A model generated the notes under the pieces. It did no database searches. It was not told where the DNA came from and was given only the letters and a program-made list of their open reading frames with translations. From Yuukianura sp. NJ FZ-2021 (lineage: Eukaryota), in NCBI GenBank assembly GCA_046563655.1, contig CM102289.1, forward strand, positions 4,774,001-4,838,000: DNA of 64,000 bases, read 5' to 3'. Positions 15,001-39,449 of the stretch are shown here, piece by piece. Every line of letters starts with the position of its first letter. Position 1 is the first letter of the stretch. Position numbers and translations under genes: made by a program.

Positions 15001-18000
15001 CAACAAGCCATCCGAGTGCATGGAAGAGAGCCTCTTACTGCCTTCTCCCATGGAAAAGGCACTCTCAACCATGTACTCCTTTCCCCATTTTAAACAACAG
15101 AAGAAAACAGCAGCTGATACTAAATGTGCTTAGTACTAATCAACTTTCTTGTGGGAGTTGATTAGTACTAAGTTTGAAATGATTCGGAGTCCCTAACATT
15201 AATTAAAATTAGATTAATTAGTTGTGGTTGTGTTTGTGTTTTTCCTGGCTTTTGACTTGGAAGTGAAAAGATGAGAAGTGGAAGAGTTGTCCCTACAGTA
15301 CCAATAGAGGGCGCGCGCTTCTCCCTTTCTTATGAACATGACGCTATTTTTGCAGTCTCACAACATCCCCCCTCACAAAGCCACGAAGCGGTCAGTACAC
15401 TTCTTATTCAACATTTTCTCTCCCTGACCCGACTTCCCATTTCCATTTTACAGTATTTACAAGAAATCTTAAATTCTAGATTTAACTTGAAGTTTAACAT
15501 TTTAAAAAATCAAAAGAAAAATTAATCTTTAATTTAACTATGGGGACAAAAATTCATTTAGGACGAAATTCGAAAAATTTACAAAGGAGGGAATCCAGCA
15601 GTAGGCAATCCAAAGTCCAATCCAGTTCAACATTACAGGCAGAAGCCTCCAGGGTCTTCTCCATCAGCAGTCACTCGTCCAGACAACAGTCTCCGTTTCT
15701 GGCGGCCATCTTTCCATTTCCAGTCCACATCCAGTTGCATCTTTCCTCGGAAAGGCCAAGTCCCATCTCTTTTCCTCTGCACGAATCCATCATTGGGGAA
15801 ACGCGCCTGTGTCGTAGTCAAATCCAGGTTTACTCGCTTCCTCCTGTCCATGTCCAACTGAGTTGTCTGGAACTCAGAGAAAAGACGAGCATTAGAGTCA
15901 TGATCGGTGATGTCATTTGTTTCATTTAGTTTTACGCGCCGCTGGCATTGCGTGCGTTTGTCCACTACTCTTTCGCGACACGGTTCAATACTGGACAGTG
16001 ACCTGACAACTACTTCGGAATCTGTGATAGCCTCGGTACTGCCATCAGTCACTTCTGCCCAGTCTTCCCAATGTTCGATTTCTGTGGCGATGCATTCTTC
16101 GAAATTGCAGTCAAAAGTCCCAGTAATCTCTTCCCACACTTCAGAAGTGTTGTCGCCCAATGCCGCCGTTCCAAACTGACAATGGCTTTCTTCTGGAGGA
16201 TCCAACGAACATGAAACTTCCGTCTCTCGAATCAGAGTTTCCGAAGCAACTTCGTCTTGGCTCGATGAGAGGCTAGTGCAATTCTCAAAGGCATCAATCA
16301 GTCCACAGTATTCAAACCCCGAATCTTCCAAAGATTCTTGCTCCATGTCCATTCCAGTATCAAACGTCGAAGAGTGAGAAGCGAGAACCACCGTCGTGCC
16401 AGACTCCTGGGTCTGCGCATGAGTACGAGGCTCATCACCGCCCTTCCAATCATTTCCTACAGTAGGGCGCTCACTCGTGATTCCCTTGTAGATCCCACTC
16501 TGATTTTCCGAAGACATAGGAGCAAACGATACCGAAGACGAATCGTCAACGTACGAGTCCACAGGAACTGCCAGTTCCCTTGGGTCAATACCATTCCCCC
16601 TCTGCCTTGAAAACCTTTGAGAAGCCCCACCAAAACTTGACCTCTCCCTCTGACCTCGAGACTTCCGTCCACGCCTGTCAATCCATCCAGAATCAGCGTC
16701 TGTGGAATGGTTGCTCCCATGGTAGGAGAGTCCAGGGTCAATGACATTGTCTGTTGTTGGCTCGTGGTACATGTTGTCCAGAGCGATTCTTCTTTCAACT
16801 TCTTCGGCTGCTTTGTACAGCTCCCTTGTGTCTGCAAAGCGTTGGCCAATCCATCTGAGTCTGTCTCTTGATTCTGGGTTCATCAGTTCAATGACCTGCA
16901 TGACCTTCTGTTCTTCGGTGTTTGGAGATTCAAGCTTGTCGAAGAGTGAGCACATTGTCAGCACATAATCGGTCAATCTTTCTTCTCTGCCTTGGTAGCG
17001 ATCCATCAGTGCTCTCTTCAGCTCACGTTGGTAATTGGGATGCTCGAACTTGCGTCGGAATTCGGAACGAAACGTACTCCAACTGTCCAGGATCTTGAAG
17101 ATGAACTGATACCAAATGGCAGCCATTCCTGAGAATGCTACTGGCAAGACTTGCTCCATCATGTCCTCTTCGCAGATTCCCCAAACCTGCATGTACCGTT
17201 CCAGTTTCAGCAAATACTCGTACGGTTGTACGCAGTAGCTTCCATCAAACTTCGGCAGAGGGCAATCTCTCCGATTCAGAATCTTGCGATCCACTTGCGG
17301 TACTTTCTCAGCCATCTTTGTGCGGGTCACTGCCTCAGCACAACCATTTCCCTGCACTTTACGCCTGCGCCCGCTCTTTTCCATCTTTGTATTTAATTTT
17401 AACTTTGACTTTGAATTTACGCGCGTAGTGGACAAATCATCGTTTGGATTTGAACTCTGACATCTCTTGTTGCTGACCGATCTACCGCTTAAGGATTTCC
17501 CGTCTGAGCCCCCATGTTGTAAGATAAGGAAATTTCGTAGTGGTTAAATTAAGGGACTTCTCTTCCGCTCTAATTTGTAAACCCAACCTTTTCCGTTCCT
17601 ATCCTTACGTTTTTCCCGGGCCCTTAGCAGTTTCACCTTAGAAGGGGGTTTCTTCCCTTTCAAGGGCCGACCGGTCACTCAAGATCACGACTTGACCCCC
17701 TTTTTACCTCTGGTAGTAGCAGAAAGAATTTGGCCTCAGTTGATCAGCTACTCCAGCCCGTTATTGATCTCGAGTACTCCAGCCCGAAAATCCAGAATAA
17801 TCCCGCACCCCAGTGCCGCACCAACCAACTCCAAACGAACCGAACCAACCAGTACTAACTACCAATAATTGACATGCCGCGGTACACAGCAATTTTAGGG
17901 GTCACCAACCCCGTGACATGAGACTGAGATGTTGTGAGTTCAATTCCAAACAACAAAAGAGAAAACCGCGCCGCGCCGCTTTACCGCGCTCAACTCGCTA

Positions 18001-19092
18001 AGTTAATGTGAAAACCAATGAGAAAACCAAATGAGAAAAACTCTAATTGAAACCAAACGTGAATCGCTAATTGAAAACCAGTTAATTGAACGGTAAAATG
18101 AAACGGTAAACGAAACGGTACTTTACAGAAAACGAAACGGTATGAAACGAAAATGTCGAACCCTAAACCGACAGAGTAACAACCCTAACCAACTCTCCCG
18201 GGATCGCCACACGGAGAGGAACCCTCAGCAGCAGGCGGGAATCCCGACCACAATCTGCCCATCCACCAACAATCCACCCGAGTGCATGGAAGAGAGCCTC
18301 TACCTGCCTTCTCCCATGGAAAAGGCACTCTCAACCATGTACTCCTTTCCTAATTTTAAACAACAGAGGAGTACAGCAGCTGATCTAATTGTGCTTAGTA
18401 CTAATCAACTTTCTTCTGGGAGTTGATTAGTACTAAGTTTGAAATGATTCGGAGTCCCTAACATTAATTAAAATTAGATTAATTAGTTGTGGTTGAGTTT
18501 GTGTTTTTTCCTGGCTTTTGACTTGGAAGTGAAAAGATGAGAAGTGGAAGAGTTGTCCCTAAACTACCAGTAGAGGGCGCGCGCTTCTCCCTTTCTTATG
18601 AACATGACGCTATTTTTGCAGTCTCACAACTTGACTGTTTTATTTGTTGTTTATGTATTGTAGCTGGAATGGGAATGACGGAACCGGATGCAATGCCTTT
18701 AAATCATAAACTACAACCTCGATATAATGACGAAGAAGGAAGCGACGATGAAGCTGAGGCGAATGGAAAATCTGGTGGATTTGAGGCGTTTGTGGAAGAC
18801 CCAGCAATTGTCCGCGCGAGGATGGAGCAGAGGCGAGCTGACAAGTACAATAGAGGTCGAGGTCAGAGGAATCCCGGACAATTTCAAAGGGATGTCGTGG
18901 GTAAGTCGGATTGCCATTTGATATATCGCAGTTTTGTATTTGTTCTTTGTGTATGCCAGTATTTCTTCTTTACCAGGAGTGGCGAAAGGTCATGGCCAAA
19001 GTGCTGAAGTTGTTCACAACCGTCGTAGGAAAGACGAAGCGGGAAGCCACAATCGTCGGAGGGGAGCTGATTTCAAGCGTAGAGAGTTCTAA
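1..19092 (+). CDS. ASCC2: Activating signal cointegrator 1 complex subunit 2 (CUE domain), multi-exon, 5' end outside the window; the intron 2332-18663 holds the retroelement array
   Basis: Motifs WLLGLPHHKFWS, FLRLSTFKE, FDVPKLFDL, CUE-like LVSQVKDLLPDL and YQDEYDDTYDE (exon ends 2331, G|gtaag). Splicing to the acceptor at 18663 restores the frame (EAGMG...FVEDPAIVRARMEQRR). Last exon 18977-19092 reads GVAKGHGQSAEVVHNRRRKDEAGSHNRRRGADFKRREF*, matching the ASCC2 C-terminus pattern. Confidence 0.9.
3005..4113 (-). repeat. LTR type A, copy 1 (3' LTR of the array)
   Basis: TGTAAG...TCTCACA, about 1.11 kb, alignable to 14255-15362 and 17518-18628; PPT adjacent at 4114-4125. Confidence 0.95.
4114..4125 (-). 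promoter_or_regulatory. Polypurine tract (further PPTs at 7626-7638 and 15363-15374)
   Basis: Minus strand GAGGGGGGATGT, or GGAGGGGGGAAGT at 7626-7638, immediately 5' of an LTR. Confidence 0.85.
4383..6134 (-). CDS. Gag-only ORF of the non-autonomous element, copy 1 (capsid domain plus acidic extension; no CCHC, PR, RT or IN)
   Basis: First ATG at 6134 (frame open from 6185). Retrotransposon capsid motifs PKFDG..QPYEYL, AAIWY, WSTFRSEFRRKF, DRYQGREEKLTDY, homologous to the Gag at 12735-14174. Confidence 0.85.
   Translation of the reverse strand: MEKSGRRRKVQKNGCAEAVTRTKMADKVPQVDRKILNRRDCPLPKFDGSYCVQPYEYLLKLERYMQVWGICEEDMMEQVLPVAFSGMAAIWYQFIFKILDSWSTFRSEFRRKFEHPNYQYELKRALLDRYQGREEKLTDYVLTMCSLFDKLEFSPSEEQKVMQVIELMNPESRDRLRWIGQRFADTRELYKAAEEVERRIALDNMYHEPTTGNVIDPGLSYHGSNHSTDADSGWIDRHGWKSRGQRERSSFGGASQRFSRQRGNGIDPRELAVPVDSYVDDSSSVSFAPMSSENQSGIYKGITSERPTVGNDWKGGDEPRTHAQTQESGTTVVLASHSSTFDTGMDMEQESLEDSGFEYCGLIDAFENCTSLSSSQDEVASETLIRETEVSCSLDPPEESHCQFGTAALGDNTSEVWQEITGTFGCNSEECIATEVEHWEDWAEVTVGSTEAITDSEVVVMSLSCIEPCCERVVDKRTQRQRRVKLNEINDKPDYDSNARLFSEFQTTQLDMDRRKRVNLDLTTTQARFPNDGFVQRKRDGTWPFRGKMQLDVDWKWKDGRQKRRLLSGRVTADGEDPGGFCL
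6247..6264 (-). promoter_or_regulatory. Primer-binding site, tRNA-Pro-like (identical copies at 14234-14251 and 17497-17514)
   Basis: TGGGGGCTCAGACGGGAA, 3 nt after the LTR end; TGGGGGCTC is complementary to the 3' end of eukaryotic tRNA-Pro (..GAGCCCCCA). Confidence 0.8.
6268..7625 (-). repeat. LTR type B (about 1.36 kb, single copy)
   Basis: TGTAAGATA...CTCTCACA, flanked by a PBS and a PPT. Alignable to LTR-A only over about 150 bp at the PBS-proximal end and about 60 bp at the PPT-proximal end. Confidence 0.88.
7033..7091. repeat. Short tandem repeat (about 19-bp unit ACTTTAACGACGAAAA.G, about 3 copies) inside LTR-B
   Basis: Seen directly. Confidence 0.75.
7878..9203 (-). CDS. ORF3 of the autonomous element: 441-aa Pro/Lys-rich protein of unknown function at the env position, not Env-like
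   Basis: ATG at 9203, one nt after a branch point-pyrimidine tract-CAG acceptor; intact frame; no signal peptide or transmembrane stretch visible. Confidence 0.75.
   Translation of the reverse strand: MSNLDPNMIVGGIRLGDLAIPPVPTREPPPIAFPVNPSQSQPQPPPPILPTYYAPPPKKHKFVSRSSALRDAKKADAFNTARNPRWQTGTIKVQNFNFKTMDDHWLQRPPSFCIDPGVISISFSNEPGKDVYKRDLTVRAPAWVTTDRPYIPPKKYEPPKKRSQGLPIRQVQKIMDVFEAEQKQKQEDAPMNTWLKFGVPKERQVEALVNMDEFLEKKRKEELEQQKPAKLSATAQMAKQKAALERRQIAKKARGRSPSPPQFDLFAQPLKLTTAKNSKTVQSKLSVPVKQIPSSTITSADLPVPMTAPRTSKSPPKKKPEATITRPEAPITRLEVPEVAPIIPWVRIKKEKGMTQAETPRRPPKLSRADVADDDLLEKWNFGDGVSAFLHPALHRGIETLTQLEGVEILEKEGRDNFRINGKIRMMKKEKFGFKDSDEDD
8131..12765 (-). CDS. pol: Ty3/Gypsy Pol (PR-RT-RH-IN), reached by -1 frameshift from gag, with a long C-terminal extension overlapping ORF3
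   Basis: PR LLDTGSS; RT FCVDYREVN..LGFFDDFLV; RH QCDASGLGIG..TEKECLA..TDHQAL; IN H-x6-H..C-x2-C, IDLMGP, VADNGPAF, ERYN, GPF. Domain order is Gypsy-type; no internal stops. Confidence 0.95.
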   Translation of the reverse strand, partial: GKRQNPGSAITPAPIRGNLLTSVAPDHLTNSVSNCNTAESLSTEVENSPPLVSVKILNQAFEALLDTGSSISLVGGQILHLVKTFNIRLLKSPHSIRQAAGTFITDEAVDLTVEWQGGKCKQHFVVSPNLSRSVVLGRDFLSKFNAGVFPSGWLIGSDDQPKFSFSKSETAFDSDPKNLPSQVKPKTKSSRSRSGLNRGTTSERPTVGNVGKGGDVTRTHAQTQESGTTVVSDSHSSSLELSGGPGNGLLDMPFSNCGLDEGDELLECSLSEGLENVELIDDLMKGVDLPVDHSRELRGIISDFSSIFTKKPGFCSVFEHRIDTGDAKPIFCHPRPMTSVKRDILLDELDKLIANDLVEPARSPWASHVLLTPKKNGSFRFCVDYREVNAVTKDDKYPMPRIDDILCYLSQGHVMSKFDLSDGFFQIGVAVEDRPKTAFITPRGLYQFKRTPQGMKNSPATFQRAMDMVMDKLRFNCVLGFFDDFLVFSKTVEEHMIHLRAFFKTMFEAGFTINPKKVAFCKSEIDFLGYVIEAGKCRPHPDKVSALTNYQIPRNVKDIQRFLGFTGYYRQFVPDFSIKAAPLSKLLRKSETFKWTKECQEGFDYLRKTLQSQVELSLPDLSKPFSIQCDASGLGIGAVLLQETEQGRSPVWFISRKLNGAELNYSITEKECLAVIYAVKKFKAYLEFTEFTIETDHQALTWLQKIKEPTGRLARWALELQGYKYQIKYRSGALNRTADALSRAFEVLTLESDYIPNKDELAHAQIQDAELGPIIKFLKNEELPATNSRDHNNYIVRRAESAFVDESGCLYKYIGNIHCPWEDDGTHWRLWIPHSLRETCLRHFHSSKIGGHLGTSKTYLKLEKRVWWKSMRKDTQNFVKSCEDCQLAKAWKVKPAGFGTSPKVKRPWENLYIDLMGPYTRSSFQNKFLLVVVDNFTKWVELFPLRSGTADVVTKKLWQVFCRWGFPSTIVADNGPAFGKSNVYKDFCKSFGVNALFIPPYHPQPNVTERYNETLKSMIVATIEKCKEWDRYLAELSFALNSSVNQTMKFSPAYLNFGRELRTPFDNVLEIPGGQSSDTQEMAERMNYVWELAKANQLSSQKEYMSQYNKKRKEVTYEIGDLILRKSRVLSNAAKGITASLMNKFEGPFVVAGKKNETILMLNSIGANEFVGEVHVSDCRPFYCCFQNEQSGSEHDCRGNSTRGLGNSTSADTRATSDCIPSESEPVPASTSTANSSNVLRSSSEETQICEPILSTSRCEKGRCLQHCEKSQMADGDNQSPKFQFQNNGRPLASASSFLLYRPRCDLDLLLQRTRQRCLQERLDSASSSLGYDRSALHSAEEIRTTKETQPRTSNPSSSENHGCFRGRTEAETRRCSHEYLAEVRSSQGETGGSTCEHGRISGEEAEGRTRAAKASQIVSHSSNGEAEGSTGTEADCQESSRSFSKSSTVRPLCSAPQVDHSEKLKDSSVQVVSSGEADSIIHHYFSRSSSSNDGPENFQVSSKEEARGHNHSPRSPDHSPRSSRSGPNHSMGENQEGEGYDPG
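12716..12765 (-). promoter_or_regulatory. Programmed -1 ribosomal frameshift signal
   Basis: G GGA AAC heptamer (12765-12759) in the gag frame, 7-nt spacer, then stem CCCCGGGTC / GATCCGGGG; pol is in the -1 frame. Confidence 0.85.
12735..14174 (-). CDS. gag: Gag of the autonomous element (coiled coil, capsid, CCHC zinc knuckle)
   Basis: ATG at 14174; capsid motifs; CFNCKESGHWRRDC knuckle. Confidence 0.93.
   Translation of the reverse strand: MAPRGKKNKRARASVDFEEGESQERESRRGSRSRQSTPPPCIPKEQPVVDTHVSELKAVDAMRKDMDKLKEQLSGVNELKDDLKTMMAQLASLSLPVAESRNPSRVFTEGNSDELSSDDEPSSRCRRDSSARRPSKSGNVLKGGDIKVPKYRGSKDRVQPYDFILELKKFQKSRELSEQQMLDLVLPISMEGDASTWYRFICHRLFTWTDFCREFRNKFEPADFQRQLSKAILDRYQGKEERLTDYILAMRNLYNKLTFCPPEEEILKNIWTLLHPDSRRRLEQTGKRYRTTMELYQEACNVEKSIEQDRAYKEPATFSHIDPGLAFAKPEQSQHRQDDNRGQPRRDHAPRYQNQSTQGTQNYQTQGQRPESKPAQTQDLPVTNSAPRTEQPRAPAQQNSILPTNSFVPRTTQVFKPAYDRLLPPDMRPSINGTGAEVPNNSQHCFNCKESGHWRRDCPKLQSTSQSLPSGNGKTPGQQ
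14255..15362 (-). repeat. LTR type A, copy 2 (shared: 3' LTR of Gag-only copy 2 and 5' LTR of the autonomous element)
   Basis: TG...CA, PBS on one side and PPT on the other, no TSD. Confidence 0.95.
15633..17384 (-). CDS. Gag-only ORF of the non-autonomous element, copy 2
   Basis: Same length as copy 1 with about 30 amino-acid differences by eye; intact. Confidence 0.85.
   Translation of the reverse strand: MEKSGRRRKVQGNGCAEAVTRTKMAEKVPQVDRKILNRRDCPLPKFDGSYCVQPYEYLLKLERYMQVWGICEEDMMEQVLPVAFSGMAAIWYQFIFKILDSWSTFRSEFRRKFEHPNYQRELKRALMDRYQGREERLTDYVLTMCSLFDKLESPNTEEQKVMQVIELMNPESRDRLRWIGQRFADTRELYKAAEEVERRIALDNMYHEPTTDNVIDPGLSYHGSNHSTDADSGWIDRRGRKSRGQRERSSFGGASQRFSRQRGNGIDPRELAVPVDSYVDDSSSVSFAPMSSENQSGIYKGITSERPTVGNDWKGGDEPRTHAQTQESGTTVVLASHSSTFDTGMDMEQESLEDSGFEYCGLIDAFENCTSLSSSQDEVASETLIRETEVSCSLDPPEESHCQFGTAALGDNTSEVWEEITGTFDCNFEECIATEIEHWEDWAEVTDGSTEAITDSEVVVRSLSSIEPCRERVVDKRTQCQRRVKLNETNDITDHDSNARLFSEFQTTQLDMDRRKRVNLDLTTTQARFPNDGFVQRKRDGTWPFRGKMQLDVDWKWKDGRQKRRLLSGRVTADGEDPGGFCL
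17518..18628 (-). repeat. LTR type A, copy 3 (5' LTR of the array)
   Basis: TG...CA followed by the TSD ACTT. Confidence 0.95.
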
Positions 19093-28191: not shown

Positions 28192-29622
28192 ATTGTCCAA
28201 ATCTTCAAGGCACTTGAGTACTAATTTTCTAATGTCAAAAATAATCATCGAATCGAAAAATTATCCAAAACGGAATGTTTTTTTTCAAAATACCATTGTC
28301 AAAATACCAAAATAAATAACACCATTGTCAGTGCAAAAGTCTGGACAATAGTTTCATTCATGGAATGAAGTGGATAGACGGCGCTTGAGCTGATGTGGAT
28401 CCTGTGTTCATCCACGTTGCGCATTGCGACGAGATCCTACGATAACAATTTTGGAATTGGAAATCTGAAGTGTTTTGAAAAAGTGTCAATTTTTAGAATC
28501 ACCACCGGTAGCGTTGGAGGCTGTTGAAGTTCGAGTTCGTTGGATTCCATTTCGTTCTTGTCGAATTAATTTTTCGCGTTCTTCGATTCCTGTAGTACAA
28601 AGCAGCTTGAATTGCTTTCTGTCGATCCGCTTTTTAGATCCTGCATGTCTTCGTTTCATTCCATAAGTTTCAATTCAATCCTAGTATGACTCCGACGATT
28701 CATTATGCTACGATTCAACAGAACTTGCCTTTTTATTACAGAAATTCTGAATTGTGTACACAGTAATATCTTGATTTTGAAATTCAGCAGTGACGAAAGT
28801 TTCGTATCGATAAGGAAAAAGTGTGAGCTTGCCTCGCCCTCGACACAAAATGGGAGAAATTATGGGAAAAATACCAAAAAATAATACCAACCAAATTTAA
28901 AGTCCAAAATCTCCTTGTGTTGCTCAATTCGAATTTTCGGTCAGTTTCTGCTGAATGAGTCTTTTCTTATCTTTACTTTAATCTGGTCAAGATGTCCGAC
29001 GGTAGAAAGACTAAGCATAGCAACTTTGTAAAGTTTATCTCGCTCGAACTTTTATCCGATTATTAGTGTGCCCTCGTATTCAGACGAACGAACGAGGTGT
29101 GGTGTAAGAATGTTTTAGATAGGGCGGGAGTATTTTCCTTCAAAAATAATGTCAAGCAAGCTCGAATTCAGTTTCGAAGTAAGTTTGACACGTAGACCTA
29201 GACGTTGTTGCTGATTTCCAGCTGTTTACTAATTCATTCGCAAATGTACATTCAATCGGAGGTAATTTGCGGAAATTGAACATCTACGGACTGGCTGTCT
29301 ACGTGGACAACGACATCGAGTTGAAACAAGTGGTCTGCTATTCTGATTTTGACTGGGTATGGGTAAAAACAAACTGTAAACGTTAATGGTGCGTCGATAG
29401 TTGATGAATTCCTAATTCTAAGTGTTCCGTCCGTGTAAAACTAACTTATTCAACTAGTCTTACTCTGAAGTGCGTCAGCCTTATTCTAGTCACATCCTTC
29501 ATGTAAGCTACTAGAACTTATTTCGTCTACTCGCTAAAATACACACGATTGCTACAAATTACGAAACATTGTGCCACTCAAAGAATGAAGCTTTTACTAA
29601 TCGTTTGATTTTTTTAAAACAG

Positions 29623-31620
29623 CTTTTGTGAATCGAGGCAAGGAAGAAACCATGAAGCCAAGTATGAAGAAGGATTTTGGGAACATCGTCCTGTTGCTAT
29701 TCTTGTACATTCTTCAAGGAATCCCACTTGGTCTGATCGCGGCTGTTCCTATGATCCTACAAAATCGTCATGTGTCATACTCTGAGCAGGCCAAGTTTAG
29801 CTTCGCTTACTGGCCCTTTAGCCTCAAGTTACTTTGGGCACCAATTGTTGATGCAGTTTATTCTACCAAAATTGGCCGAAGAAAGACATGGTTAATCCCA
29901 ATGCAATATCTCATCGGAATGTTTATGTTAATACTGTCCTCTAGAGTTGATGAAATGCTCGACACTGCCAGCATTACACTCCTCACTATGGTATTCTTCA
30001 TGTTGAATTTCCTAGCAGCAACGCAAGATATTGCGGTTGATGGATGGGCATTGACGATGCTGCGAAGGTATCAGTTTACTTTTTTGTTTTGTTTAAGAAA
30101 ATGTTGCTAGCAAAGTGGCAGAAACTAATGACTGTTTGTTGCAGTAATCATTGATTTTCTCTGATTTCAGGGAGAACGTTGGGTACGCGTCCACCTGCAA
30201 TAGTGTTGGCCAAACCGCCGGTTACTTCCTTGGTTACATAGTATTTTTGGCACTGGAATCACCGGACTTCTGTAACACGTATTTGAGATTTGAACATCAA
30301 GATGTTGGTCTGGTTACCTTGCCAGGTAAGTAATTTAATTTTTTGGGGTTGCTTACAAAAGACGCTTTAAACAATGCACCAAAGGTTCCGCCTGTACAAT
30401 GCCATCGTATAATTTTTTTGAAGGGTTTCTGTATTTTTGGGCCTGGGTCTTCATGCTTACTACAACACTTGTTTGGATCATGAAGACAGAACTACCGGAA
30501 ACGGATTTAGAGAAAGAATCCGTTGCATCCAGTTATCAACTCCTCTTGAAAATCTTGAAATTACCTAACATTAAAACTATTGTCGCCATTCTGCTCACCG
30601 CTCGGGTAATAATTTGTCATACGGTTTAGGCTGGTTTATACTGAAATGAGATTTTCTTGATTTTGTGTAAAGATCGGTTTCGGGGTAGATTCCGCAACAG
30701 GCCTCAAACTATTAGAAGCAGGCTTACCAAAAGACAAAATCGCAATGCTGGCCATTCCTATGACTCCATTACAAATTATGCTCCCATTTGTCATTTCCAA
30801 GTACACCACCGGACCAAATCCGATGAATATTTACATCAAAGCTATGCCTTTAAGGTAAAACACTCCTAATAAATAAAGCAAAAGATATGTTTTTCCAATA
30901 TAATGTTTACTTTCTAAAAGGTTGGTGTTTGGATTCGTATTTGCCTTTCTCGTCTGGATTACTCCTTCATTTAAGCAACTCGATGGAAGTTTTTCATACA
31001 CTTACTACGGAATTGTGTTGACCATATATGCTGTACATCAGGTTTGTGTGCTTGAACAACATTTGAATTTGATTAGTGTGAAGGCTGTAATTTAATCTTT
31101 GTACAGGTCACTGTTTACAGTATGTTTGTGGCAGTGATGGCCTTCTTTGCGAAAATCAGTGACCCTGCATTGGGAGGAACGTACATGACCCTGTTGAATA
31201 CAGTTACCAATTTGGGCGGGAATTGGCCAGCTACTGTTGCCTTATGGCTGTTGGATCCGTTAACAACGAAATCATGCTCCGGTGCCCCGCTGACTAACGA
31301 TTGCTCAACTTCTATATCGGAAGCGGTAAGGCTTTACAGCGTTTAAACTTTAACCTACAGATTGTGAATTTTGAATAACCCACAGTTGTTTTAATGCACG
31401 GACCAACAACTGAATTTTAATTTTTACTTATGTTAAATAGGCTTGTCATGCTGGAGGAGGTGAATGCTTGACTCTTGTGGATGGCTACTACATTGAGACC
31501 GTCGCCTGTGTTTGTATTGGCTTCCTTTGGCTGATATGGGGGAAACCAACAATTTTACGACTGCAAGCTGCTCCACTTGCCGATTGGAAAATCGTGAATC
31601 GGAATGGCCGGAAGGATTGA
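29623..31620 (+). CDS. SLC33A1: Acetyl-CoA transporter 1 (MFS), multi-exon; start codon unresolved (ATG 29652 or an upstream exon)
   Basis: LLFLYILQGIPLGL, WPFSLKLLWAPIVD, ATQDIAVDGWALTML, GYASTCNSVGQTAG, GGTYMTLLNTVTNLGG, DGYYIE. Confidence 0.95.
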
Positions 31621-31830: not shown

Positions 31831-32460
31831 TTTCCTATAGAATGCGGGGGGGGGGGGATTAATAGGGAGTTCTGTGTCGCATGTTAGAAAGCACTTCCTC
31901 TACGTGCTGTCAATCCGTGACATGAAGTCGGCAATGCACAATTTTATAAGATCTTTTTTTTGGAATTCGCGTTTAAATGTTTCCTATAGCATGTGTGGGG
32001 GGAGTGGGGAGGGATTAATAGGGAGTTCTGTGTCGCATGTTATTATAACATATGGTGGTGAATTAATATAAAGTTACAGTGATTTGGCACTAGTCGTTGG
32101 CATCTCAAACGCCGTTCAGCAACCAACATCGGCATTTCTTGCTCAGTGAGCGTAAACGACATTATTATTAACAAATGCTAATTACGCTAATAATTATGCT
32201 TATAATTATTACGCTAATTATTATAAATTATAAATTACGCTAATAATAATGTCGTTTATTTTTAAAATCTAAATTTGCCATATATGCCATTTGGGTGAAG
32301 ACTCGAAAGTGCACTTCAGCTGTTAGATCAACTTCCATAATATGGGATAATATAAAGCACTGCCTCTGCGTTATGCCCATACGTGACGTAAAGTAGAAGT
32401 AGCAATGCACAATTTTATAAGATCGTTTTTTTTTCTGAATTCGGGTTTAAATTTTTCTAT
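31831..32460. repeat. Local rearranged duplications (31831-31886 ~ 31980-32042; 31925-31989 ~ 32396-32460) and an 18-bp perfect inverted repeat (32153-32170 / 32241-32258)
   Basis: Seen directly. Confidence 0.7.
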
Positions 32461-32640
32461 TATATGATCCACCCTTTTCGATAGAATTCTAGCCTTCTCC
32501 CAAAATATAGTCAGTACCTGACATGTATTAGCAGCAGAGTCCTTGATAGTCAAACCATTATGCCTGGAATGGTGGTAGCGACCTCTCAACACTTGACCAT
32601 TGGAAGGCAGTTTACTTCCAGTTAGTGAGTCCAAAGTTTG
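32420..32640 (-). pseudogene. N-terminal remnant of a DNA-transposon-associated protein
   Basis: GSKLPSNGQVL...FWEKARILSKRVDHIIEKFK resembles the N-terminus of invertebrate transposase-like proteins; truncated. Confidence 0.45.
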
Positions 32641-33239
32641 GAAAAACTTGAAAAGATCCGTCCAGTCATTAATTAAAATCATCTTTGTCCTTGGCGTAGG
32701 ACGGAACCGAACCGATAACGTTGACGAACTGCGTCGGAGTTACGGTCGGTTTTGAAGAACTAGTAGATGTCATGATGTACTGTTCCTCAGTTGTTATCAG
32801 TTAGAGAAACCTAACAATGATTATGTAATGTACTAATGGGGAGAGGCTAATCTAGAATTACCGTGCCCAAATTGTAACGATTACCGATAATGCAGTTGTG
32901 TCGTGATGTCTTCCAGTGATGTAGAATCCTTGGTTCACTAGCCACGCCAGATGTGGTGTATTCATCGTTTTAAATAAATGTATTAGTTTATTGAATGAAA
33001 ACTTCAAACTAATTTAAGTGTTGGTTGAGCGGCACTCAGACATTGAGTGCCAAAACTATGTAAACGAATCTTTGACAGGGTGCGGCCTTTATTCTCCTGG
33101 AACCCTCTTTCACCGCTCAACTTTCTCAAGTTTCCAAAAGTTGAGTCGGCATAAGAAATTAGGAGTTAGGAGGTGAAAGCACACGGGCCGTGTTGAGATT
33201 GTACAGCTGGCGCTACATTGGTTTAAATTTGAGTCAAAT

Positions 33240-33810
33240 AAAAGCTTAGTATCCGACCGTGCATATTCCAACATTTCTGGTTGCAGTTTGCTCAAATGAC
33301 GGATTGTCCAGTAAGCCAGATGTGCATCCTTCCTCAATGGAACTGCCAGACCTAAATACAGGTGAATTATTTGTTCAAAGCCGATTGACTCACGACTATC
33401 AATTATCCCCAATGACGAAACTCTGGTATTGGACCTGAAATACCAAAACATCGTTAGTACAAGCATGAAACAACTTCTGTATGATTTGATTGGACTTAAA
33501 AAAATTGATTTCAGTTGTTGAATTTGGTATACCAACTGAAATGGATCAATTAAAAAATCTTGAGTCTTTCTATATATCTGTCTGACTGAACAGATGTATC
33601 TGTTCCAGTAGACTCTCTGGACTCATTTCTACATCAATGGCAATCACTGGTTGTTTTAACAAATGAATCATCATTTTCGAAAATTCTAAATCGTTATCAA
33701 CGACTGTCACCCTTGTAGTGTCGCGTCCGTCTGCAGCAATATTTTCTGGATGAAGCATAAGGCCTTCCAATGGAATCGATGCATGAACAGAACTTTTAAA
33801 TGGATGAGCA
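33240..33810 (-). pseudogene. RRP6/RNase D-like DEDDy 3'-5' exonuclease remnant
   Basis: HPF..., VTVVDNDLEFSKMMIHLLKQPVIAIDVE (ExoI) and AYWTIRHL...EMLEYARSD (ExoIII), broken across frames. Confidence 0.65.
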
Positions 33811-34219
33811 AATTGTAGATAGTTTAGCCGCTGTTTCTGGTTATCGCGTCACTGTGGAACTCCACTAAGTAATGAACATTTTGTGGACGTTGGCTCGCCC
33901 GTCCGTACGTTTTCGCTCGATTCACTTTCTCCCAGTACTTGGAGGCAATGCTCGCCCCTGGCATAATGAAGCCGTAAACTGGAGATTGTATCATAGTGGG
34001 TTAGTGAATTGGTATCCAAATTTACAACAAACAAGAACATGTAATTTGACTTGCCACGACCTACACACGTCAAAGATCCGTAGTTGAAGCCACACGAAAC
34101 AAAGATCCGGCACGGCTTGGTTGTAGGCCAAGGAGGAGTGCCTTGTGGGTTGACTGGTAGTCTACTTCCCTGATGATCCCTCTCGACGCGAGCATTGATT
34201 GTGTATTCAAACACACCTA

Positions 34220-34913
34220 GAGGCAAAATGTAAGGCGAAAAAACTCTTCGTTTAACTGACGATTTCGCCAAGCATCTCCCGCTTGAAAGAAAATGCGCTT
34301 TCCTTCCATCATTCGTCCCATAAGGTAGGAAACAACGTAGGTTAGCTCGATGGCCTCTTGATGACTGTTGAGGATGCAATTTTTCACGCCAATTTCAACA
34401 CTTCCTTTCGGAAGACGTTCTTGTTGATCTCGTAATTGCGGAAGACTTTCTTTTCGAGTTCATCCAATGCAAGTTTCATCTCTTCTTGCTGTCTTTGGAC
34501 TGACATCAACTTGGTCAGAGACATTCCCCCAAGTCCAATGCCAGTAGTCGCGAGAGCGGCAGCGATTAAAATTCCAAGTGCCAAAAAAATTCCTCGTTTT
34601 GCTCTGGTCGTCACAGACGTATTGTTTCTTTTCGGAGGACAAATGGCCTTGAGGTTGGCAAGGATGATGCCGCCGTAGTTGTCATTGCACGTATCAATCT
34701 CGTCGTTGATCCGTTGACTGTTCTCATTCCTTGGTGAGATTAGATCACTCGGAGACACTAATTTTATACGTGATTGCACCACGTGAAAGCTAGTCACAGC
34801 CGTCGCACTTTTTCTCCAAATGACAAATTGTTCGGGTTTGTGGGCGGGTACCACTGATCCTTCGCCCATGGTGCCCATCAGGTCACGAGTAAGAAACAGC
34901 AAATAAAGCTCAT
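34220..34913 (-). pseudogene. Env-like class I fusion glycoprotein, N-terminal half, frameshifted and truncated
   Basis: Signal-like MSFICCFLLVT/LMGTMG (one frameshift), sequons NNT/NTS, furin site RAKR, fusion peptide GIFLALGILIAAALATTGIGLGG, heptad repeat LMSVQRQQEEMKLALDELEKK. Confidence 0.75.
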
Positions 34914-34944
34914 TTTTCCGATTTTTAGGCTTGGCTTAAATGAA

Positions 34945-35445
34945 CTATTGTCGTCTGAATTTCGCTTCTCCGTCGTTTGGGATGAACTTTCGTTTGACTA
35001 TGCTTGCGTAGGATTCGGGGAGTGCATCTAGTCCCATTAATTTGCGTTTTCTCATAAGTGTATCTTTGTTCGTCGCTTTCGTGAGAATATCCGCTGGTTG
35101 TACGCTGTCTGGCGTATGATGAAGAGTAACAAGCTTCTTATCAATTAAATTTAGGATGTAGTTGTGACGGATATCAATATGCTTCGTTTTGTCATGGTAC
35201 TCCGGGTTTTTCGCAAGTTTGATCGCACTCTGTGAGTCTGTCTTGATTACGATGCTTGTCTGAGGATAGTTGCATTCAGCAAGAATATGAATTAACCAAA
35301 TGGATTCTTTTCCAGCGTGGAAAAGTGAGGTTTACTCAGCTTCTGTGCTTGATAAGGCTATGCAAGTTTGTCGCCTGCTCAGCCAAATAATTGGAGCATC
35401 GTTGATCATGAAAAGACATCCTATGGTTGATTTCCGGGAGTTAAC
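34945..35445 (-). mobile_element. Ty1/copia Pol C-terminus (RNase H), degenerate
   Basis: RKSTIG..IIWLSRRQTCIALSSTEAE*..KTDSQSAIKLAKNPEYHDKTKHIDIRHNYI..QPADILTK; one in-frame stop; not in the supplied ORF track. Confidence 0.92.
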
Positions 35446-37685
35446 AGCAGAAATTTCTCGAAGTGTCTGAAATGGGTGGATGAATAAGGCTGTTGTGCAA
35501 AAACTAGGAGATGAGTTTGATTTGATTTAGTCCTTTATTTGTGGCACACTTGCCAAGGCGGAGGGCACAAACAAGGGAAATTTAGACTTAACTCGAGAGA
35601 GTTACACTTTGAACAATAGTAGGTCCAAGTGAACACTACTGGAGAATAACAATAGGCTCAAGTGAGCAAGAGAGACATAGAAGGTTTCTCTGCAAGTGCT
35701 GGAACACAACTTAAAGTTAACTTAAAAGCTAAACTATGGATTTGGGTCGTTTCCGCCTCCACTCATTGTCGTTGAGAATGGCCACGTCACCTGCAGTGAG
35801 GTTGACACGTCGTCCTCTCTCAAGGCAAGAAGGGGAGTCGGAAGACCGGAAGAGCACAAGTGTATCCATGGTAACCATGGCATCCGGGAATTGGGATGGC
35901 GGAAGACAAGGTTGTGTTTGCCCTTGAAGAGTGTACATTATGCCGAGCGTCCAATGTGATTTTTGCTCCAACGCAAACCACGTTGGCAAATCAGTTGTAC
36001 AGCGTTCAGATAACAGTTAGAAGCCATCGGTTTTGTCCGATCCCACGTCCAATTTTGAAGGCCAGAGAAACCCCAAACCAAGAGTCCGCAACCCGTCCAA
36101 CATGACAACCCTTTGAAAGGGCATGACGCTTGTAAGTCCAGGAGTCAGGGTGCCCGCAGGTAGCCCGAACAGGGATCATTTTGCATGGTCACCAGTGATA
36201 TATAATAGTTGATGATACGTACCCTGCAGGGTTCCTTGTTCCCAAATTGGGTATCATTCGTGACTAAATAATTACGAATTGACCAAGTTGTGTCGTTAAG
36301 GATAGACATTGGATAGCCGTAGGAATTGGTTCTTGTTAAGTGCAGATGAATGCACTGATTCGGTGTTAAAGCTTGTGGAAACATAGTAGTGTTAGTCGTA
36401 AATTGTTTTGTCCGGCAGGAATCCCAAAACTCTAATGCTCTCTTAGCAAACACCAAAACCAGACTGAGTTCATAGCTCCACTGTAACACTAAACTAACGC
36501 ACTAAAACTACAAACTAAACTATAATCGTTGAGGTTTTCGACAGAATAATCATTCTTTCTCCATCGCAATCTGGTTCAGAGTGCAATACGATACATTTTA
36601 CATTGCTTATGTCCAGCTTCATCGACTGAAAGTAATTCCTGAGTCTTTTCACGTTGTTACAACAGAGCGTTATACTCCGGCTTTGCACTAATCGTTTCTT
36701 CATATTCTTCTTCTTGTCTGTCTAATCAGAAAAATGATGCTCCACTTCAATTATAATTTATGAAATGGATTGGATGATTGGTTTTTATAGTTTTATTATA
36801 AATTAAAGTTATTACTTAAAAAACGTTGCATGTAATTGTAAAGTTAATTGATTAATTGGAAAAAACAACTCTAGACAGACCATGCTTCACACACTTGAGA
36901 TTTGAAGTGAAGTTGGCAGTTCCTCTGTTTGCTAACACTTTTTGTACATTTGAAATTGGCGCTTCTCTTTTGAGAAGCGTCTCATTTGCCAAAACACCGC
37001 CCTCCATTGAATGACAAGGACATTCAATTTTGCACAAATAAAAAGAGAAAAATAATGACCAATTCTAGATACTAGTAGATTTTAAAACACAAATGAAAAA
37101 ATGGAAGGCTTCCGTTACACTACTGGATTTGGTGGCAACGAAGGTGGCTCAAGCTTTCTACCAGTTGGCCAGGCTGGAAATTGCCGTTTGCATGACCCTA
37201 CCAGTAGGTAATGAGATAAAGGTAACGCAATCAGTCACACAATCCAGAATTTATTCACCTTATGTTAAGTAGCTAGTCTACTGGAACGGAAGGTGTTTTA
37301 GCAAATTAATTTTCACCCCCAATTTAAATATTGAAAGAGATAAAGAATTAACACTAAGTCTATCTTAACACCTATGTTATGATAGGACAAAATAATCATG
37401 TAACACTTAAGATTTTGAATCTAGCTAACACAAATTTTTAAAGTTATTAGTAAATTAATGAATATTTTTTTTTAATTCAACACTACATTCTTTAGTACTA
37501 AATGCCTACAAATTTTACACTTGAAAGTTATTTATACATACTCAATTCCTGAACTTACACTACTCCGTATCAAGTAGTTTCACGATTTAGACGACTGGAC
37601 AAAGAAACACGTGCTCTTTTACTTTCAGTTGACTCTTCTTGTCCAATTCTGTCGTTTTGAAGTTGACTTCCACAGATGGAACTAA

Positions 37686-38000
37686 CGTAAGTTGTCTTTT
37701 CCTGGGAATGTCTTCGTCAGTGTGGCGAGTTTCCACTTCAGCGGTGGAGTGTCTTCGTCTTTGATGAGGACGAGATCGCCAGGTTTGATGTTTTCTGATT
37801 CGTTCCGCCACTTGTCTTTGCTGGAGGAGATTCAAGTATTCCTTCCAGTGATTCCAAAAATGCTGGGACATCTGCTGGACACGTTTCCATCTCGAGAGTC
37901 TGTTTTCGTTGATTTCGGCCAGACTTGGTTTTGGGATGGCGAGTAGTGGTTTTCCAATAAGGAAATGTCCTGGAATTAGTGCCTCAACGTCATCTGGATC
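37686..38000 (-). mobile_element. BEL/Pao retrotransposon fragment (post-integrase DUF5641-type region)
   Basis: DPDDVEALIPGHFLIG..RW..VQQMSQHFWNHWKEYLNLLQQR/KW..PGDLVLIKDEDTPPLKWKLA..PGKD, with a frameshift. Confidence 0.85.
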
Positions 38001-39449
38001 ACGAGATTTGATTCAATAAAATATATTTTTCAACAAATTTTACATTTTTTTTTAAATTTGAATTTAAAAACAATGAAAATAAAAAACAGATGAGAATTAT
38101 AAGGCTCAATTTTTTTTTATGATTTTGTTTCTTCTTTTTTCACGTAATTTGTCAAGCCCCACTTTTATTTGTGTTCGACTACGACTGCATAATACTTTGC
38201 GTTACAAATAAAGCTACTCAAATCAAAGAACTGCATTTGAATTTGCCAGTGTCCACACATTTCCTGCAGCATGTTCATTTTTTATTACAACCAGTGTAAC
38301 ATTACACCCTGTATGTTTTGCTTGTTCATTGTGGATTAGAAGTAAATGCTAACCGACTCGCATTGGAAGGGATCGTCGTAGTTAACATAAAACGTAGGAT
38401 TTCGGAACGCATTTCTCGACAGCACTGAAACTGCTTTTCCGTTGCATCCAGGTTCATCATATAGAATAACACACTTGCTGAATTCGATGTTTACAAAGAC
38501 CGACATGAAATTGTTTCGTAGCTTGGTTAGGTTCCAGCAGCATTTGCCGAAAAAGAAACCCGAAAAGAAAGAAAATAGATTTTACTCCAAATATGGAGCA
38601 ACGGCAGAACCAATGAGAATGACGAAAAACGCTGAAGATTTGTTTTAATTGGTACTTCGAAATGTTGATTGTAAATGTAAATTTCAAATTATAAGTTTCA
38701 AGTGATTTCATAATAAATACTTGCGTTGTACACAATTAAATACGTAAAAATTACTTCCAAAACCTTTCCGCTCAATTCCCTCAAAAATGCCGACATGTGT
38801 GCCTGAACTGAAATTCAAGTGCCGACGAGTAGGTCGAAATCACTCCAACTTTTATTTCTCAGTTCGGCAATAATAGTAATAGAGGCAGAAGTAGATGGGG
38901 AGGACTAATAGGCCTATTTATGGGAGTTGATGTAGCAGCTAGCTGGAGTGCACATTCGAAATCTCACCCAAACGCATACATGGGCAACAACACATTTTTT
39001 AAATCCATTTGTTTCACTTGAGTTTATGCTGAAAATAGTAATATTAAATTACTAAGTTTAGTAATTAACTGTCCTGGTAAAGTAATTTCGAAAATATTTT
39101 TGATGCCCATATGCGATTTTGTATTGCTTCGGCTATATGGTATCAAGGAAACTGAAAATATGGTGAAAGTCCAATAGTTGACTATGGGAGAAAGCGATAA
39201 TTTCTCCAAATGGACGCCAATGTCCAACATCTATTCGAGAAAAGAAGGTCAGACCCTAGTTTTTCTTGTTAGTAAACTAACTATACGGTACATCACTTTC
39301 CATGTGTACCTTAAGTTATTACTTTATTATGTACTGCAAATATAACAAAATATTATTTGCATTAATTAAGTTAAACAAATTCACAGTTAAATAAGTTAAT
39401 TAACTAATGCTAACTAATAAAGTGCGAGACGTTCATATTCAGAATTAAA

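Follow-up and report, generated by a model that had tools for sequence, protein, structure and literature searches.

In a window of 64,000 nucleotides from Yuukianura sp. NJ FZ-2021 (the whole stretch analysed here, positions 4,774,001 to 4,838,000 of contig CM102289.1, assembly GCA_046563655.1), the minus strand carries, from about 35487 down to about 34220, the end of a Ty1/copia polymerase gene joined to part of an envelope (env) gene. We consider it very likely that this fragment is the dead, doubly truncated remnant of a Ty1/copia element, belonging to a lineage in which the gag-pol frame has been extended, in frame, by an F-type glycoprotein of 500-600 residues. A previous sequence-only reading had proposed at this place a relic of a copia lineage with a class I fusion env, and this proposal is supported by the recurrent linkage of RNase H and env, by congruent trees of the two parts and by F-like structural models of the relatives. 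What distinguishes a retrovirus from a retrotransposon is that it has captured a viral fusion gene. Captures of env have been documented in animals for Ty3/gypsy elements (errantiviruses and TelKA), for BEL/Pao elements (Roo, Tas and Anakin) and for retroviruses; those of the copia type are regarded as purely intracellular.

When the relatives were aligned onto the window by tblastn, a single collinear alignment was obtained, which covers 35487/35442 to 34387 in frame -2 and continues in frame -1 from 34360 to 34220. This result implies that the RNase H and the env part are one continuous homologous unit. The C-terminal part of the Ty1/copia RNase H, that is, the end of pol, occupies positions 34948..35487 of the minus strand (frame -2, tblastn with P0013, P0020, P0024, P0027 and P0005) and aligns collinearly to the Pfam-verified copia polyproteins P0013, P0020, P0024 and P0027. 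It reads ...RKSTIGCLFMINDAPIIWLSRRQTCIALSSTEAE*...KTDSQSAIKLAKNPEYHDKTKHIDIRHNY...PADILTKA..., has an in-frame stop at 35334-35332 and, as had been noticed from the letters, ends at a TAG whose last position is 34945 (34947-34945). The pol-env junction, at 34936..34947 on the same strand, consists of this TAG, two codons and a TAA (34938-34936); RNase H and env share one frame, and nothing else lies between them. In many relatives this junction is without a stop, P0003, P0007, P0010, P0021, P0032 and P0043 being continuous there.

An env-like open frame of 183 codons (P0001) follows on the minus strand, from 34935 to 34387. Its first portion, at 34864..34935, is a linker with the degenerate remnant of a signal peptide (AKPKNRKNELYLLFLTRDLMGTMG), with which the linker and signal peptide of P0003 and P0007 align; the true position of the signal peptide in the main frame is about 34908-34864, where the degenerate sequence reads LYLLFLTRDLMGTMG. 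The ATG at 34913, formerly taken as the start of a signal-peptide-like leader, has to be abandoned in this role, as it opens the 11 codons MSFICCFLLVT and then meets a stop, outside the homologous frame. The remaining parts of the earlier description were all recovered on the minus strand. They begin with an F2-like N-terminal subunit at 34606..34863 (VIWRKS...SPSDL...C...Y...ICP; alignments A1/A2), which contains the sequon NNTS. This is followed by a furin-type cleavage motif, RAKR, at 34594..34605, by a hydrophobic, Gly/Ala-rich, fusion-peptide-like stretch at 34525..34593 (GIFLALGILIAAALATTGIGLGG), present in all 33 aligned relatives, and by the first part of heptad-repeat A (HRA) at 34387..34524, a heptad-like region that forms a long helix in the models of the relatives. 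The near-invariant positions of the F2-like part are, in P0003 numbering, R106, P111, G115, P128, C129, C149, Y153 and C165; this copy keeps two of the three conserved cysteines, C129 being replaced by Ser. The frame changes between 34387 and 34360, and the homology resumes at 34360 in P0002, which holds the remainder of HRA (EAIELTYVVSYLMGRMMEGK...WRNRQLNEEFF; 34220..34386, minus strand, tblastn frame -2 to -1) and extends to about 34220, so that the continuation of env after a shift, also claimed before, was correct. Pfam named no family for any of the pieces of the fragment.

The characterization of this copy as dead and truncated was likewise accurate: three stops interrupt its frame, which also changes once, the sequence is cut off on either side, and LTRs were not found, with no LTR-like repeat within positions 32000-38000 of the window. 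The 5' truncation lies at about 35451-35487 and the 3' truncation at about 34220-34239, and domains I/II, HRB and the membrane anchor are absent. The fragment is inert debris and does nothing itself. No second copy was detected within the window by tblastn. Whole or partial, the fragment was found in five public runs (two coded organisms, two studies), no RNA run being among those listed, and contigs from four of these five runs were aligned to it at 80% likeness. Run X1 gave 97 aligned pieces, 29 of them at 99% likeness or higher, 21 at 95-99%, 18 at 90-95% and 29 below 90%, a spread which implies that diverged paralogous copies exist. The contigs of other copies diverge from the window sequence below 34239 and above 35451, and they differ by an indel where the frame of the fragment changes. 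These data are as expected if the element has longer copies at other places in the genomes of those runs and the fragment is what remains of a truncated one.

Regarding the surroundings of the fragment, the window contains an intron-split acetyl-CoA transporter gene at 29601-31346, one exon of which matches solved chains of acetyl-CoA transporter 1 (AT-1; E 5.6e-54), and a 3'-5' exonuclease gene at 33113-33848. An intact-looking Ty3/gypsy element lies at about 3000-18600, and a BEL/Pao-like fragment, with a weak, sub-threshold match, at 37590-38012. Judged from these sequences, the AT-1 exon and the BEL/Pao-type fragment would fit an animal host. The Ty3/gypsy element of the window was rejected as a source of env: its extra ORF, at 7881-9278, is Pro/Lys-rich, overlaps pol and is devoid of env features.

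The relatives of the fragment come from metagenome and run assemblies. P0001 alone, searched against 1.84 billion representative proteins, retrieved 32 at E<=1e-3, six of them at E<=1e-10; the best match was P0003 (E 9.5e-21, 40% identity over residues 6-182), and the homology is far beyond chance. One of these 32 proteins, P0029, was discarded as an unrelated bacterial repeat protein. A word-based search for longer proteins using the fragment gave no match. RVT_2 was present in 6 of the 14 relatives of a first Pfam scan and in 2 of the 26 further relatives of a second one, which also revealed the copia protease barrel in one protein. RVT_1, the gypsy-type reverse transcriptase (RT), was found in none of the relatives scanned, every relative with a polymerase having RVT_2. 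Full gag/PR/IN/RT copia sets (Retrotran_gag_2, Pol_BBD, gag_pre-integrs, rve, SH3_retrovirus and RVT_2) were identified in P0013, P0020, P0024, P0027 and P0043, in the order PF14223, PF22936, PF13976, PF00665, PF25597, PF07727. The first four of these proteins are 1741-1942 residues long, and their env match is located at about residues 1376-1553. A length-shifted profile search yielded four long proteins (1731-1894 aa), all four with the copia Pfam set; the contigs that encode them measure 6054-6740 nt and derive from three different sources.

By their RVT_2, their copia-type gag and their gag-PR-IN-RT-RH order, the env-carrying relatives belong to Ty1/copia, and of this the fragment keeps the RNase H end only; the combination expected for errantiviruses, an RVT_1 pol with RT-RH-IN order upstream of env, was not found in the relatives. 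With respect to the junction itself, blastp showed that 22 of 40 relatives contain the end of the copia RNase H ahead of env within a single protein. The sequence-only reading had admitted that a juxtaposition of RNase H and env unique to this locus would speak for chance; the adjacency proved to be recurrent, collinear and mostly in frame in the relatives. Internally deleted derivatives that retain env were also detected (L008, P0022 and P0023).

At the DNA level, a metagenome collection scanned with alignment A3 provided nine loci. L001, a metagenome contig of 6734 nt, has a single uninterrupted ORF at 239-6184 (1981 codons), the translation of which, P0043, comprises gag, protease, integrase, RT, RNase H, linker, signal peptide, F2, RREKR, fusion peptide, membrane anchor and tail. 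Full-length LTR-gag-IN-RT-RH-env copies with a C-terminal membrane helix had been suggested as the thing to look for, and L001 shows the coding part of such a copy, in one frame and with its anchor present. L004 represents a second family, circularly permuted, in which the frame from pol to env is continuous across the circular junction; its env carries an internal stop. RNase H and env lie in different frames in three of the five loci that span the junction (L002, L003 and L006). As these frame changes occur at differing positions of the linker they look like decay or assembly error, and a programmed frameshift at the pol-env junction was rejected.

L001 and L004 are of unit length, with about 665 nt of non-coding DNA, and both end in 123-nt terminal overlaps; in contigs closed by such overlaps two separate LTRs are not distinguishable. 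As terminal overlaps of this kind are the mark of an assembler-closed circle, and the contigs that hold a full-length frame all measure about one unit (6054-6740 nt), the intact relatives might be free, possibly circular or episomal, reverse-transcribing viruses, of which the window holds an endogenised piece. We regard this as rather unlikely, because a repeated chromosomal element looks just the same once its two identical LTRs have been collapsed, because decayed copies reside inside long contigs of 15-55 kb (L007-L009) as well as within the window, and because many diverged copies are present in the runs.

In the Ty1/copia lineage that we favour as the source of the fragment, env has the layout of an F-type protein, which comprises a signal peptide, an F2-like part with three cysteines, an R-x-K/R-R site, a fusion peptide, HRA, a beta-rich head, HRB, a membrane anchor and a short tail. 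Of the 33 sequences in alignment A2, 26 have R-x-[KR]-R where the cleavage site aligns, and all 33 continue right after this site with a hydrophobic stretch; each of the 17 that extend to the C-terminus has a membrane-anchor-like segment. The relatives thus combine a signal peptide, a small subunit, a multibasic site with its fusion peptide, and an anchor; the fragment retains RAKR and the hydrophobic stretch, with the anchor absent and the signal peptide degenerate.

By sequence comparison, env is nearly an orphan. No member scored above the Pfam gathering score for PF00523 (Fusion_gly; cut-off 29.8 bits) or for PF12259 (Baculo_F). Sub-threshold matches to PF00523 were obtained for P0034 (20.7 bits) and P0030 (18.3 bits), corresponding to 2/26 and 1/19 in two scans but to two distinct proteins, since P0034 was in both; the scan of 19 counted matches at E<=0.1. 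A profile of alignment A1 compared with PDB sequences placed the F0 chains of NDV, hMPV and hPIV3 on top, with a weak E of about 0.008 and a match that extends over no more than the cleavage site, the fusion peptide and HRA. The ESM-Atlas features of P0017 point to F0 clusters (score 0.97), which share 221 of the 256 features.

Structural prediction was more telling. AlphaFold2 models were obtained for P0003 (33 sequences; pLDDT 72.4, pTM 0.56), with helices at residues 176-203, 212-224 and 233-290, and for the divergent P0018 (31 sequences; pLDDT 78.0, pTM 0.57). For both models, all of the Foldseek matches against the PDB, among those listed, were F proteins of paramyxoviruses or pneumoviruses. 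The best match of P0003 was the post-fusion F of RSV (3rki, E 1.6e-9), with 221 matches at E<=1e-3, and that of P0018 had an E of 3.6e-9, with 215 matches. The alignments span about 490-500 columns, and the TM-scores are low (0.2-0.4), as is expected from long helices that differ between the pre- and post-fusion forms. VIA-align applied to the list of Foldseek gave a Z of 9.2, and a Foldseek-independent fold search a highest Z of 7.7, both of which are middling values that exceed only slightly those often seen for models lacking relatives; the fold call is therefore based on consistency, coverage and the gap to unrelated rows. The former value was obtained with 8tvg_A (rmsd 7.2, 301 residues), and the best 50 rows were all F proteins. 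In the latter search, of 48,161 representative chains, F proteins took ranks 1-10 (Z 7.7-6.4), foamy-virus Env ranks 11 and 13, and F chains again ranks 12 and 14-16, the first unrelated chain having a Z of 4.3.

In a viral library the best matches were invertebrate mononegavirus-like glycoproteins (E 1.8e-12) and baculovirus F/Ld130 (E 1.3e-11), these two groups scoring between E 1e-12 and 1e-10, with paramyxovirus F0 next. Both predicted models contain the F2 strand and helix, HRA, the beta-rich domains I/II and HRB of the F fold. Together, these models, one replicating the other, clearly predict an F-type class I fusion protein fold for the env of the relatives. The comparison by Foldseek with paramyxovirus and baculovirus F proteins, which had been recommended as a check, was matched by the models of the relatives (E 1.6e-9 and 3.6e-9, and about 1e-11 for baculovirus F), and the fear that the ORF might have no fusion-protein fold is answered by models that fold like the F proteins of paramyxoviruses, pneumoviruses and baculoviruses.

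Trees of pol and of env were built from the 12 relatives in which the RT end and RNase H together cover at least 180 residues and env covers 250 or more, the others being left out. A deep split separates P0013, P0020, P0024, P0027 and P0038 from P0005, P0007, P0008 and P0043-P0046 in both trees, with support of 100/99 for pol and 100/100 for env. The pair of P0020 and P0027 and the group of P0007 with P0043-P0046 are also contained in both, and several inner forks are unresolved in the pol tree and in the env tree alike. Pol and env diverged together in the relatives. Between L001 and L003, env shows a dN of 0.080 and a dS of 0.897 over 447 codons, and the resulting dN/dS of 0.089 implies strong purifying selection on env in the relatives.

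This selection also bears on whether the F-like module may have ceased to be a fusogen, having been given an intracellular role (anchoring of assembly at the ER/Golgi, or superinfection exclusion) or being carried as a passenger. The retention of env by the internally deleted derivatives L008, P0022 and P0023 would agree with such a fate, as would the fact that translation as a polyprotein only gives env and Pol at 1:1, which is odd for a surface protein. Against it, the full machinery is conserved (cleavage motif in 26/33, fusion-peptide stretch in 33/33, anchor in 17/17, and both the HRA and HRB helices), and the dN/dS of 0.089 argues against the passenger version in particular, so that we give little credence to the loss of fusogenic function. 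As for a chance juxtaposition, in which a copia pol piece came to lie beside an env of other origin (for instance gypsy errantivirus, BEL/Pao element, endogenous RNA-virus glycoprotein), the retroelement debris in which the window is rich (Ty3/gypsy at about 3000-18600, BEL/Pao-like at 37590-38012) and the lack of LTRs of the fragment's own would suit it, but it is hardly believable given the recurrence of this junction, with its parts in unchanged order and mostly in one frame, among 22 of 40 relatives and the intact single-ORF contigs, the agreement of the pol and env trees, and the finding of RVT_1 in no scanned relative.

We infer that the env of this Ty1/copia lineage would carry out membrane fusion and that the lineage would be, or would have been, infectious. 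In intact members the signal peptide is located about 1450 residues into the polyprotein, often without a methionine of its own. Such an internal signal peptide could route the env part to the ER in two ways, as the end of the gag-pol-env polyprotein or as the product of a spliced RNA that would supply an upstream start; read-through from gag to env is favoured over the spliced RNA, because many diverged members have no stop between RNase H and env. A furin-like protease would cut F0 after R-x-K/R-R into F2 and F1, freeing the fusion peptide on F1, and F1 would stay held to F2 by a disulfide, in view of the three conserved cysteines in F2. The HRA and HRB helices, together with the anchor, would drive fusion as in other class I proteins. 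The env trimer may decorate budding copia particles and fuse them with the membrane of a neighbouring cell, and the resulting spread could be from cell to cell or from host to host, as in errantiviruses.

A more far-reaching proposal, which we put forward as possible though doubtful, is that these relatives form a branch of Pseudoviridae made of still-active enveloped retroviruses of invertebrates, in which everything from Gag to the fusogen is one polyprotein of about 1900-2000 residues, with VOMI added in some. The encoded parts would be Gag, protease, integrase, RT, RNase H and an F-type fusogen, and the signal peptide after RNase H would send the last module to the ER, as in flavivirus-like polyproteins. 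Assembly would thereby be tied to Env-bearing membranes, allowing horizontal spread, and the host-derived VOMI domain that some members would have gained before F2 might be a receptor-binding subunit.

A copia lineage with an F-type env module fused to pol has apparently not been described. In the available text of a study on F-type and gB-type env published in eLife in 2026 ('ancient errantiviruses', from many animal phyla), all elements are classed as Ty3/gypsy, and a copia-like env is mentioned only in a general sentence (PMC13524379). The accessible portion of a study of bdelloid rotifers reports paramyxovirus F-like env only in the gypsy-like TelKA, and calls the env-like ORFs of plant copia elements unproven and of uncertain function (PMC5408684). 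A 2025 overview (Kojima 2025) gives env captures, in its accessible text, for Errantivirus and Anakin only (PMC12440569). The terms 'envelope', 'glycoprotein' and 'additional ORF' are absent from the available text of a 2025 survey of metazoan Copia elements (PMC11889832), and likewise from that of surveys of molluscs and annelids; a study of Jingchuvirales found no capture by Copia. The search covered open full-text literature, and within it no animal copia element with a viral (F-type) fusogen was found.

If our interpretation is true, copia would become the third LTR superfamily with env capture, through a lineage whose F-type env is conserved and under selection, and this lineage would offer a mechanism for the horizontal transfers that have been invoked for metazoan Copia clades. 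It would also represent a natural example of a single gag-pol-env polyprotein with an internal signal peptide, and would widen the known distribution of the F fusogen superfamily.

Among known systems, the F-type ENV of Ty3/gypsy errantiviruses resembles the copia env as predicted here: it is a class I fusogen cleaved by furin, its fusion peptide is hydrophobic, its head and stalk are like those of RSV F, and it has long accompanied pol, according to the part of the report available (PMC13524379). The two differ in that the pol of the copia lineage is of the Ty1/copia type (RVT_2, PR-IN-RT-RH), and that env is a separate ORF in errantiviruses, whereas in the copia lineage it is often in frame with pol; given the domain order of Ty1/copia, the copia env follows RNase H and not integrase. 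The gypsy-like TelKA of bdelloid rotifers shares, in the accessible description, an env of about 600 aa with RXXR, a fusion peptide, a coiled coil, conserved cysteines and a C-terminal anchor (PMC5408684). In contrast to the copia family, which remains below the Pfam threshold by hmmscan, the env of TelKA matches pfam00523 strongly by HHpred, as stated in the same portion of that source (PMC5408684).

Lokiretroviruses (PMC7947760) and Roo/BEL-Pao (cited in PMC13524379) are, in the sections available, further independent reverse-transcribing elements with an F-like env. Judging from the same sections, they differ from the copia lineage in belonging to other pol superfamilies, the former being Retroviridae-like, and in having separate env genes. 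Plant Sireviruses (SIRE1), as far as the accessible citing texts describe them (PMC5408684, PMC3414828), share the Ty1/copia backbone and likewise have additional coding sequence behind pol. By description only, again from an accessible portion (PMC5408684), they are restricted to plants and their extra region is a separate ORF with no traced homology to viral fusogens, whereas that of the copia family is F-like. Lastly, the F proteins of paramyxoviruses and pneumoviruses and baculovirus F (Ld130) resemble the copia env, in its predicted models, in overall fold and in the order of the parts; they differ from it at about 10% identity, with no Pfam membership of the copia family at threshold, and the gene of the copia family is borne by a retroelement and fused to its polymerase.

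The env remnant, a dead and truncated copia RNase H followed by an F-type env fragment, is flanked by two host genes. One of them, split by introns, encodes an acetyl-CoA transporter (Acatn; window 29601-31346, plus strand), and the other encodes a 3'-5' exonuclease (DNA_pol_A_exo1; 33113-33848, minus strand) that sits on the env remnant's strand, immediately downstream of it. A short repeat of very high copy number was observed at positions 35732-35848, where the summed contig depth reached the thousands in all four public sequencing runs whose contigs were aligned to this part of the stretch, with loose ends on both sides. Positions 37590-38012 (minus strand) hold a fragment resembling the C-terminal part of a BEL/Pao integrase, its DUF5641 match (E 1.4e-4) falling just below the Pfam cut-off.

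The window also contains an intact-looking Ty3/gypsy element on the minus strand, at positions 3004-18630. It comprises a gag (12738-14204, minus strand) and a pol of 1692 codons (8134-13209, minus strand) in which RVP, RVT_1, RNase H and integrase are all present, together with three LTR-like repeats (approximately 3004-4620, 14253-15870 and 17517-18630). A Retrotrans_gag match was obtained for each of two almost identical ORFs of 636-639 codons (4386-6302 and 15636-17543, minus strand); one copy occupies a post-pol position and the other lies inside a short LTR-ORF-LTR unit. In addition, a Pro/Lys-rich frame of 466 codons (7881-9278, minus strand) extends over the last part of the gypsy pol in a different frame; it had no Pfam match and no env features.

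Among the related copia-env copies found on metagenome contigs, the two full-length loci had exact 123-nt terminal overlaps, at 1-123 and 6612-6734 in L001 and at 1-123 and 6453-6575 in L004, so that one unit measures 6611 nt in L001 and 6452 nt in L004. Contigs bearing long relatives measured 6.0-6.7 kb in every case. The overlaps and the unit-length contigs could reflect two LTRs collapsed by the assembler, or a circular DNA form. Internal deletions that removed at least RT and RNase H were seen in L008 (7783-11411), P0022 and P0023, which retain env directly behind integrase or protease; these could be non-autonomous forms carrying env.

One subgroup of relatives (P0003, P0007, P0040, P0043, L002, L003 and L006) conserves a basic linker motif, KRKA[LC]SS.IV.PKRPN, between RNase H and the signal peptide, just upstream of the latter, and in the window copy it is reduced to a trace, AKPKNRKN. 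This motif could be a protease site or some other signal. Finally, in one relative, P0030, a VOMI domain (PF03762, E 1.6e-43) follows the signal peptide and precedes the F2-like part, the small N-terminal env subunit, and a second multibasic site, RRQKR, comes after the domain, which could be a receptor-binding subunit acquired by capture.
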